Positions 1,686 to 1,812 of a stretch of 4,397 bases of DNA are shown here, piece after piece. A program made the translations under genes and the position numbers. Within the stretch, counting starts at the first letter, position 1; each line of letters starts with the position of its first letter. The stretch lies in IMG/VR virus record IMGVR_UViG_2778261591_000014; one strand, written 5' to 3'. This stretch comes from a virus (lineage: Duplodnaviria; Heunggongvirae; Uroviricota; Caudoviricetes). The notes under the pieces were generated by a model. That model saw only the letters and a program-made list of their open reading frames with translations. It had not been told where the DNA came from and did no database searches.

Positions 1686-1740
1686 TTGTTCCCTCTTTGG
1701 GAATTATAGATTCATTTCCCATAAAGGGAATCTGTATTTT
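1686..1740 (-). promoter_or_regulatory. Putative autonomous promoter and operator for the higB-higA-chaperone operon
   Basis: On the minus strand a perfect TATAAT (complement of 1703-1708) lies about 27 nt upstream of the higB ATG. An inverted repeat TTTCCC-ATAAA-GGGAAT (1715-1731) covers the -35 and spacer positions and the -35 itself is weak, as expected for antitoxin-autoregulated promoters. Confidence 0.35.
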
Positions 1741-1812
1741 TATCCAGAAATGCTATGTACATCACCCAAACGTCTCTTCAGGCCACTGGTTACCAGCTAT
1801 GTGACGATGAAG

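Follow-up and report, generated by a model that had tools for sequence, protein, structure and literature searches.

The stretch of DNA analyzed here (the window, 4,397 nucleotides of a Caudoviricetes virus, IMG/VR record IMGVR_UViG_2778261591_000014) comes from a Shiga-toxin prophage of the H-19B/BP-4795/ST2-8624 type, covers the immunity region of that prophage, and is 100% identical to those records. On the minus strand, downstream of the cI repressor, it carries the three genes of a toxin-antitoxin-chaperone module, higB, higA and higC, and our subject is the region that lies between cI and higB. We consider it highly probable, from sequence comparison, that positions 1677-1748 are the native sigma-70 promoter-operator of this HigBAC cassette, most likely autoregulated by HigA. 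Read-through from the PRM and PRE promoters probably contributes as well. The genes and features that bear on this are listed below.

1813-2517, minus strand: cI repressor, with a helix-turn-helix (HTH) and an S24 peptidase domain; an open reading frame (ORF) with a Pfam Peptidase_S24 match (3.7e-16), annotated as cI in BP-4795
1762-1812, minus strand: non-coding stretch following the cI stop codon, in which fossil 3' ends from other cI alleles are stacked; contains a 4-bp stem at 1786-1796 and no terminator
1749-1761, minus strand: junction between phage backbone and cassette, specific to this insertion
1730-1749, no strand assigned: conserved A-rich element that abuts the -35, a LexA-box-like 20-mer (ATCTGTATTTTTATCCAGAA) and/or an UP-element-like A-tract
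1716-1730, no strand assigned: candidate operator O1, palindrome TTCCC-ATAAA-GGGAA
1725-1730, minus strand: candidate -35, TTCCCT (3/6 matches, 16-bp spacer), read from the sequence
1703-1708, minus strand: -10 hexamer, TATAAT (6/6)
1689-1703, no strand assigned: candidate operator O2, palindrome TTCCC-TCTTT-GGGAA (TTCCCTCTTTGGGAA)
1677-1696, minus strand: predicted short 5' untranslated region (UTR) with a weak ribosome-binding site, placed from the position of the -10
1389-1676, minus strand: higB toxin, 95 aa; PF09907 (4.5e-30, 104 bits against a cut-off of 27) and PADLOC PD-Lambda-2_A (2.5e-42)
736-1392, minus strand: higA antitoxin, 218 aa, with an N-terminal XRE-type HTH and a C-terminal chaperone-addiction tail; PADLOC PD-Lambda-2_B (3.8e-50, N-terminus)
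335-739, minus strand: higC, SecB-like chaperone, 134 aa; PADLOC PD-T4-9_C (3.2e-11)
307-326, minus strand: intrinsic terminator that closes the cassette, a stem-loop followed by a T-run, from a terminator scan

Identity of the module

The module is organized toxin-first, with higB 5' of higA and the higA start overlapping the higB stop (ATGA). HigBAC has been described as a toxin-antitoxin-chaperone antiphage system of a lambdoid prophage, lying "downstream of the cI repressor", with a HigA of 218 aa and with named aromatic anchors in the chaperone-addiction tail (ChAD) and named HigC pocket residues; the copy for which antiphage defense was published is that of NT1F31 (Mets et al., bioRxiv 10.1101/2024.02.24.581848). 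The window's HigA carries W128, F158, F188 and Y214, and its HigC carries Y39, N41, R49 and D71, at the same positions as the published anchors and pocket residues, and the position of the module downstream of cI in a lambdoid prophage agrees with the published location. Judged by protein lengths and the positions of these diagnostic residues relative to the published proteins (WP_112844288-90), the three genes after cI are the published HigBAC system. The original prediction, made from the sequence alone, had named higB, higA and cI, and these gene calls are right (a PF09907 toxin, an HTH antitoxin and an S24 repressor), but it described a two-gene higBA module; higB and higA were correct, while the third gene, higC, was overlooked.

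Outside the PADLOC models, the third gene is poorly covered. The window's HigC copy has no Pfam or NCBIfam match, NCBIfam has no match for any of the three module proteins, and a Proteus homologue of HigC has a weak match to PF02556 (SecB). Public annotations still list the chaperone as a ‘hypothetical protein’ and HigA as a ‘helix-turn-helix domain-containing protein’. The HTH of HigA aligns with that of E. coli K-12 HigA (41% identity over 61 aa, E = 3e-10 by BLASTP), and the solved structures nearest to it are those of HigA (5ycl and 5ifg), K-12 HigA being its closest solved relative.

A candidate promoter bracketed by two palindromes

A module promoter with a palindromic operator had been proposed for this gap on the basis of a perfect minus-strand TATAAT at 1703-1708 and an overlapping inverted repeat, TTTCCC-ATAAA-GGGAAT, at 1715-1731. 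The hexamer is exactly as claimed (the plus strand reads ATTATA) and is the sole perfect TATAAT in the window, though one occurrence against 2.4 expected is not significant by itself. As for the repeat, its core of five plus five positions, TTCCC and GGGAA at 1716-1730, is perfect, while the outer T/T pair that had been included does not pair. This core is O1, and the prediction of a palindromic operator is sound to that extent; what it missed is O2, a second palindrome with identical half-sites at 1689-1703. There are thus two copies of TTCCC-N5-GGGAA in the window against 0.15 expected, and these are the only such sites in 50 kb of BP-4795, even when one mismatch is allowed.

The two palindromes are placed so as to cover both ends of the candidate promoter. 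O1 spans the -35, which is its promoter-distal half-site, together with those 9 nt of the 16-nt spacer that adjoin it (1716-1724), and O2 takes in the final base of the -10 and the predicted transcription start (~1695-1698). The centers of the half-sites are 10 bp apart in each palindrome, as would be expected if HigA bound as a dimer through its XRE-type HTH, and the centers of O1 and O2 are 27 bp apart. In the mechanism that we propose, a leftward sigma-70 promoter with a TTCCCT -35, a 16-bp spacer and a TATAAT -10 would initiate near A1696, and HigA dimers would sit on O1, over the -35 and spacer, and on O2, over the edge of the -10 and +1. HigA, alone or as a HigBA(C) complex, would bind both palindromes and repress its own operon, and loss of HigA would de-repress it. 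The evidence that this arrangement exceeds chance comes from comparison with related loci, and not from the TATAAT hexamer itself.

A terminator-like call on the plus strand at 1716-1740 (TTCCCATAAAGGGAA followed by TCTGTATTTT) consists of O1 and then the T-rich antisense of the element upstream of the -35; no plus-strand gene ends there.

The candidate promoter region moves with the module

Comparison of insertions places the promoter region inside the cassette. Prophages that have the same cI but other cargo are identical to the window up to 1759-1764 and unrelated beyond. The adjoining junction, 1749-1761, is unconserved with either set of relatives, and substitutions in a 95%-identical E. 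coli variant gather here. The 72 bp immediately upstream of higB (1677-1748), on the other hand, are kept wherever the three-gene module occurs among the loci compared. Cassettes in Serratia lack an upstream repressor and follow a DUF927 gene and ydcA, those in prophages of Klebsiella, Enterobacter, Rahnella and Proteus stand behind different S24 repressors, and the same region is also kept in metagenome contigs. Together, several Serratia loci (L084-86, L091/92) and a chromosomal Leminorella locus (L101) have these 72 bp before higB with no cI upstream.

The other end is equally well defined. The terminator at 307-326 is kept in all contexts, and homology stops immediately after it. In one Serratia cassette (L091, 3480-3510), CCCCGC...GCGGGG replaces CCCGGC...GCCGGG, so that both arms have changed and the stem is preserved. 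As delimited by these sequence boundaries, 307-1748 is one mobile cassette made up of promoter-operator, higB, higA, higC and terminator. Of 5426 complete E. coli genomes, 88 carry it, and a distant blastn search of E. coli genomes with higB and the promoter, seeking a PD-Lambda-2 locus and its native promoter, returned only the same cassette in 88 genomes. Some cassettes elsewhere are followed by an ORF of 66-69 aa on the opposite strand (L084:4402-4602, L087:4389-4592, L090:4399-4608 and L094:4866-5075), which has no equivalent between the cassette and N in the window or in BP-4795.

Conservation is concentrated in the half-sites and the -10

Constraint across the region can be measured in a set of five cassettes, between whose higB genes 40% (0.40) of synonymous third positions differ. 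In pairwise comparison, the 20 positions of the operator half-sites differ in 0 of 200 cases, and the five positions of the -10 that lie outside O2 in 0 of 50. The rest of the region is far more variable: pairwise differences reach 0.15 in the palindrome centers, 0.47 in the spacer between O1 and the -10, and 0.49 in the 5' UTR, the most variable segment. The 95%-identical E. coli variant agrees with this pattern, its changes in the region being confined to the junction and the 5' UTR.

The same signature extends well beyond close relatives. We examined 80 distant loci listed by a contig scan (L004-L083), in which HigB identity to the window is 40-69% (relatives were listed at no more than 69% identity) and which come from Gamma- and Betaproteobacteria, Verrucomicrobiota, Bacteroidota, Chloroflexota and others. 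Of these 80 listed loci, 53 have the shortened motif TCCC-N5-GGGA in the 120 bp before higB, at a density of 6.35 per kb as compared with 0.0069 per kb in 434 kb of flanking sequence, an approximately 900-fold enrichment. Its position has two modes, -53/-54 and -26/-27, which are the positions of O1 and O2 in the window. Distant gammaproteobacterial loci hold the composite O1-N7-TAnnnT-O2 in exact register, and several Beta- and Gammaproteobacteria have one palindrome between a canonical TTGACA and the -10. The presumed recognition helix of the antitoxin HTH, S-x-S-K/R-V-S-E-V-L-N, is conserved across these loci along with the rest of that domain, and this holds for each of the three antitoxin sizes given below.

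Across this wider family, the stems of TCCC-N5-GGGA never co-vary and the loops do vary. Such a combination of invariant stems and varying loops is, as far as sequence can speak, the signature of base-specific protein recognition and not of an RNA hairpin. The same motif precedes higB with antitoxins of three sizes, namely a plain HigA of 120-145 aa, a form of ~220 aa with a chaperone-addiction tail, and a form of ~400 aa, which is the size of the peptidase-fused PD-Lambda-2_B model. The use of one operator by three antitoxin architectures suggests a shared regulatory chassis, with possible cross-talk between systems. TCCC-N5-GGGA at about -53 and -26 marks this toxin-antitoxin family across phyla.

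Taken together, the mobile 72 bp, the invariant sites, the family-wide motif and the K-12 homologue discussed below lend strong comparative support to the proposal that the module has its own promoter with a palindromic operator. We found no description of a native HigBAC promoter, its transcript start or a TCCC-N5-GGGA operator in the open-access literature searched.

Probable read-through from cI

Transcription of the module may not depend on this promoter alone. PRM transcripts, and PRE transcripts as well, probably continue into the module, with cI (1813-2517) as the upstream source, because no terminator separates cI from higB. The original prediction had already remarked that the gap lacks a strong intrinsic terminator and has just a 4-bp stem at 1786-1796. 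The stem (CTGGTTACCAG) is present, a scan finds no terminator-like site on the minus strand over 1677-1830, and the folded read-through RNA has only short hairpins, with no U-tracts. Read-through from PRM is plausible by analogy, given the precedent of lambda cI-rexAB and the layout of the next gene in related prophages. The same cI tail in a 933W-like prophage leads straight to the next gene, with nothing but a ribosome-binding site before it, and expression of both cI and the cargo gene stk is of the lysogen type in a phi24B lysogen (PMC4651098).

Points against an autoregulated promoter

Several observations weigh against the reading set out above. A generic sigma-70 scan makes no call at this promoter, because its best -35, TTCCCT, matches at just 3 of 6 positions. 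The Pfam HTH_3 match of HigA (3.6e-4, 20.9 bits) falls under the gathering cut-off of 23. The open-access literature searched holds no start-site or operator data for this cassette in Shiga-toxin phage lysogens, and Mets et al. (bioRxiv 10.1101/2024.02.24.581848) studied HigBAC under Ptet or PBAD and are silent on the native promoter and operator.

The layout also has exceptions. The exact motif is absent in 27 of the 80 listed distant loci, and among closer relatives, the Proteus cassettes (L098-L100) keep O1 but have no recognizable O2 and a TATAAG-like -10; in one of them (L098), O1 itself is defective, with GGGAA changed to TGGAA. For these two reasons, the two-operator layout is neither universal nor obligatory. 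As for the read-through component, HigA bound to O1 and O2 could act as a roadblock to transcription from PRM, and Rho-dependent termination is possible in the 136-nt gap between cI and higB.

Alternative explanations

The alternative that survives best would add to HigA autoregulation and not replace it. The element at 1730-1749 may be a LexA box, in which case LexA and HigA would co-repress the promoter, and DNA damage would de-repress it when cI is also cleaved. We regard this SOS input as a tentative possibility, and on balance an unlikely one. The 20-mer has CTG-N10-CAG at 1732-1747 with both trimers intact, and matches TACTG(TA)5CAGTA at 14 of 20 positions. It scores 16.0 bits and is the top 20-mer in 50 kb of BP-4795 with a position weight matrix built from an informally assembled set of 25 E. 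coli SOS boxes, whose own leave-one-out scores range from 7.9 to 26.1 bits. Among the five cassettes, the element differs at 0.19, less than the 0.40-0.49 of neutral sites, and there are precedents in Caulobacter higBA, under LexA and HigA, and in an IncC higBA with a putative SOS box. Against this, the set of sites behind the matrix is informal, CTG-N10-CAG alone is expected about once per 4 kb, and the element scores 8.7-9.5 or -3.4 bits in other cassettes, where CAG has become CAT in 3 of 7. A LexA site is, by this comparison of sequences, not the conserved feature of the family. The A-tract also fits the proximal subsite of an UP element, for which the consensus is AAAAAARNR.

Two other candidate sites were noted. 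We considered whether TGGATAAAAATAC, upstream of O1, is a cI operator, as OR has TGGATAAATACG at 2543-2556, and rejected this, given that it is conserved in cassettes with other repressors or with none. A second SOS-box-like 20-mer (TACTGGATCAATCCACAGGA, 3306-3325), with a score of 13.3 bits, falls in the gap from the cII stop to the O start, where it overlaps the ribosome-binding site of O.

More speculatively still, and in our estimate improbably, the promoter may integrate three inputs, namely autorepression by HigA, LexA, and cI read-through gated by HigA, and the shared operator could let co-resident systems cross-regulate. If the three-input reading were true, the dose of an abortive-infection toxin would be tied to both the lysogenic state and DNA damage.

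A further alternative holds that the module lacks a working promoter of its own and depends entirely on cI transcripts that run on from PRM or PRE, the TATAAT and the palindromes having some other function or none. The weak -35, the silence of the generic scan and the non-significance of a lone TATAAT would all fit this, as would the other cargo of this slot, for which no promoter is visible. We nonetheless think it very unlikely: the same 72 bp precede higB in Serratia and Leminorella where there is no cI to read through from, the -10 does not vary and keeps its distance to each of the two palindromes, and the K-12 homologue with the same layout has a mapped promoter.

It is less likely again, to the point of being scarcely credible, that the palindromes work in RNA, by forming a hairpin, attenuator or terminator in the read-through transcript or in an antisense one, and not in DNA as sites for a protein. 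Pairing between O1 and O2 is possible in the read-through RNA (z = -2.65), and O1 with the T-rich sequence beside it is called terminator-like on the plus strand, but no U-tract follows either hairpin on the sense strand and there is no plus-strand gene to the left that would need a terminator. The stems are invariant across phyla without compensatory changes while the loops vary, and in Rfam, searched with the whole window at E <= 1, all matches were spurious and none lay within 1677-1812.

Finally, a chance occurrence of TATAAT and a short inverted repeat in an AT-rich intergenic region, to which the below-expectation count of the hexamer and the commonness of 5-bp inverted repeats might seem to point, is refuted by the two exact copies where 0.15 were expected, by complete conservation of half-sites and -10 against a background diverged at 40-49%, by the ~900-fold family-wide enrichment and by the composite motif in exact register.

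The cI tail and the cargo slot

The sequence between the cassette junction and cI offers a probable account of how cargo is exchanged at this site. The tail at 1762-1812 is ~100% shared with prophages that carry other cargo. Its first part, TGGCCTGAAGAGACGTTTGGGTGA (1762-1785), is the in-frame end, ...QWPEETFG*, of the lambda-type cI found in many lambdoid contigs, and 1786-1812 is similar both to the end of a third repressor type (..FWSSHSW*) and to lambda's own post-cI sequence. The fossil lambda-type stop coincides with the homology breakpoint at which cargo diverges. From these sequences, the fossil cI ends probably supply the recombination homology for exchange of cargo in the slot. A CTGA(A/T)GAGAC motif after cI was considered as a hammerhead-like or other RNA element and rejected, being the fossil coding end of lambda-type cI.

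The remainder of the window encodes, on the plus strand, cro, cII (PF05269), O and the start of P, as identified from ORFs and Pfam. Repeated TCCCTCAAAACGAGGGA-like units inside the O gene (3680-3800), which by inspection we take to be lambda-type origin iterons, attract spurious snoRNA matches in Rfam.

Comparison with known systems

HigBAC is a validated antiphage system, and a promoter, two operators and cassette boundaries give a minimal native construct for it (307-1760). O1 and O2, so defined, are exact targets for electrophoretic mobility shift assays and mutagenesis, which would be useful for the study of HigBAC under native control.

The proposed arrangement is conservative. Autorepression through palindromes that overlie a promoter is the textbook arrangement for toxin-antitoxin systems and has already been seen in K-12 higBA, so it does not change how these systems are understood. 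K-12 higBA (ygjNM) is also the closest parallel, being toxin-first, with a PF09907 toxin and a homologous XRE-HTH antitoxin. Its upstream region reads GTTGCC-AATCT-GGCAAC, 6 nt, TATCAT, 1 nt, TTGCC-AATTT-GTCAA, and the scan that is silent at the window promoter calls TTGCCA-16-TATCAT here, with the -35 inside the left half of the first palindrome. In both loci, then, two palindromes with N5 centers bracket the -10, and the -35, separated from it by a 16-bp spacer, falls within the left half of palindrome 1. The K-12 start has been mapped by primer extension to a promoter that is active only in the absence of the locus and is shut off by HigA (PMC2814082), and HigA and HigBA are reported to bind the K-12 palindromes about equally (PMC11980606, PMC11869752). 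The two differ in their half-sites, TTCCC in the window and TTGCC in K-12, and this change accounts for the weaker -35 of the window promoter (3/6 matches against 5/6), while the -10 is better in the window (TATAAT against TATCAT). The palindromes are 29 bp apart from center to center in K-12 and 27 bp apart here. K-12 higBA is moreover a two-gene chromosomal locus, without a chaperone, a prophage context or an upstream gene that could supply read-through.

For the combination with cI, lambda provides the natural comparison. The lambda cI-rexA-rexB genes form a PRM operon with an internal promoter, PLIT, and a terminator, tIMM; PLIT lies inside rexA and drives rexB only, and is not known to be autoregulated by Rex. 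In both phages, the slot after cI holds an exclusion or defense module, as noted by Mets et al. (bioRxiv 10.1101/2024.02.24.581848), and in both, the module is transcribed, or here proposed to be transcribed, together with cI and from a second promoter of its own, with a terminator before PL. Unlike PLIT, the promoter described here precedes the whole module and carries candidate antitoxin operators, and the proteins are unrelated to Rex.

Precedents for dual input exist among toxin-antitoxin operons themselves. Caulobacter crescentus higBA(C) is controlled by LexA and HigA, and thus resembles the window in being a HigBA-type module that combines an SOS input, a candidate one here, with repression by module-encoded regulators; its ‘HigC’, however, is a transcription factor and not a SecB-like chaperone. 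In E. coli, the dinB-yafNO operon is fed by the promoter of its upstream gene and by its own antitoxin-repressed promoter directly upstream (PMC2814082). It is a precedent for two promoters feeding one toxin-antitoxin operon, although the upstream promoter there is that of LexA-controlled dinB, and the toxin and antitoxin families differ.

With respect to mobility, the cassette can be compared with the ‘morons’ of lambdoid phages. These were recognized through comparative genomics as units of a promoter, one or more genes and a terminator inserted between backbone genes. The HigBAC cassette is likewise self-contained, with a predicted promoter and a conserved terminator, it lies between different backbone genes in different genomes, and it is likely expressed from the prophage. 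Where it departs from a moron with a single constitutive gene is in bringing three genes together with a proposed autoregulatory circuit.

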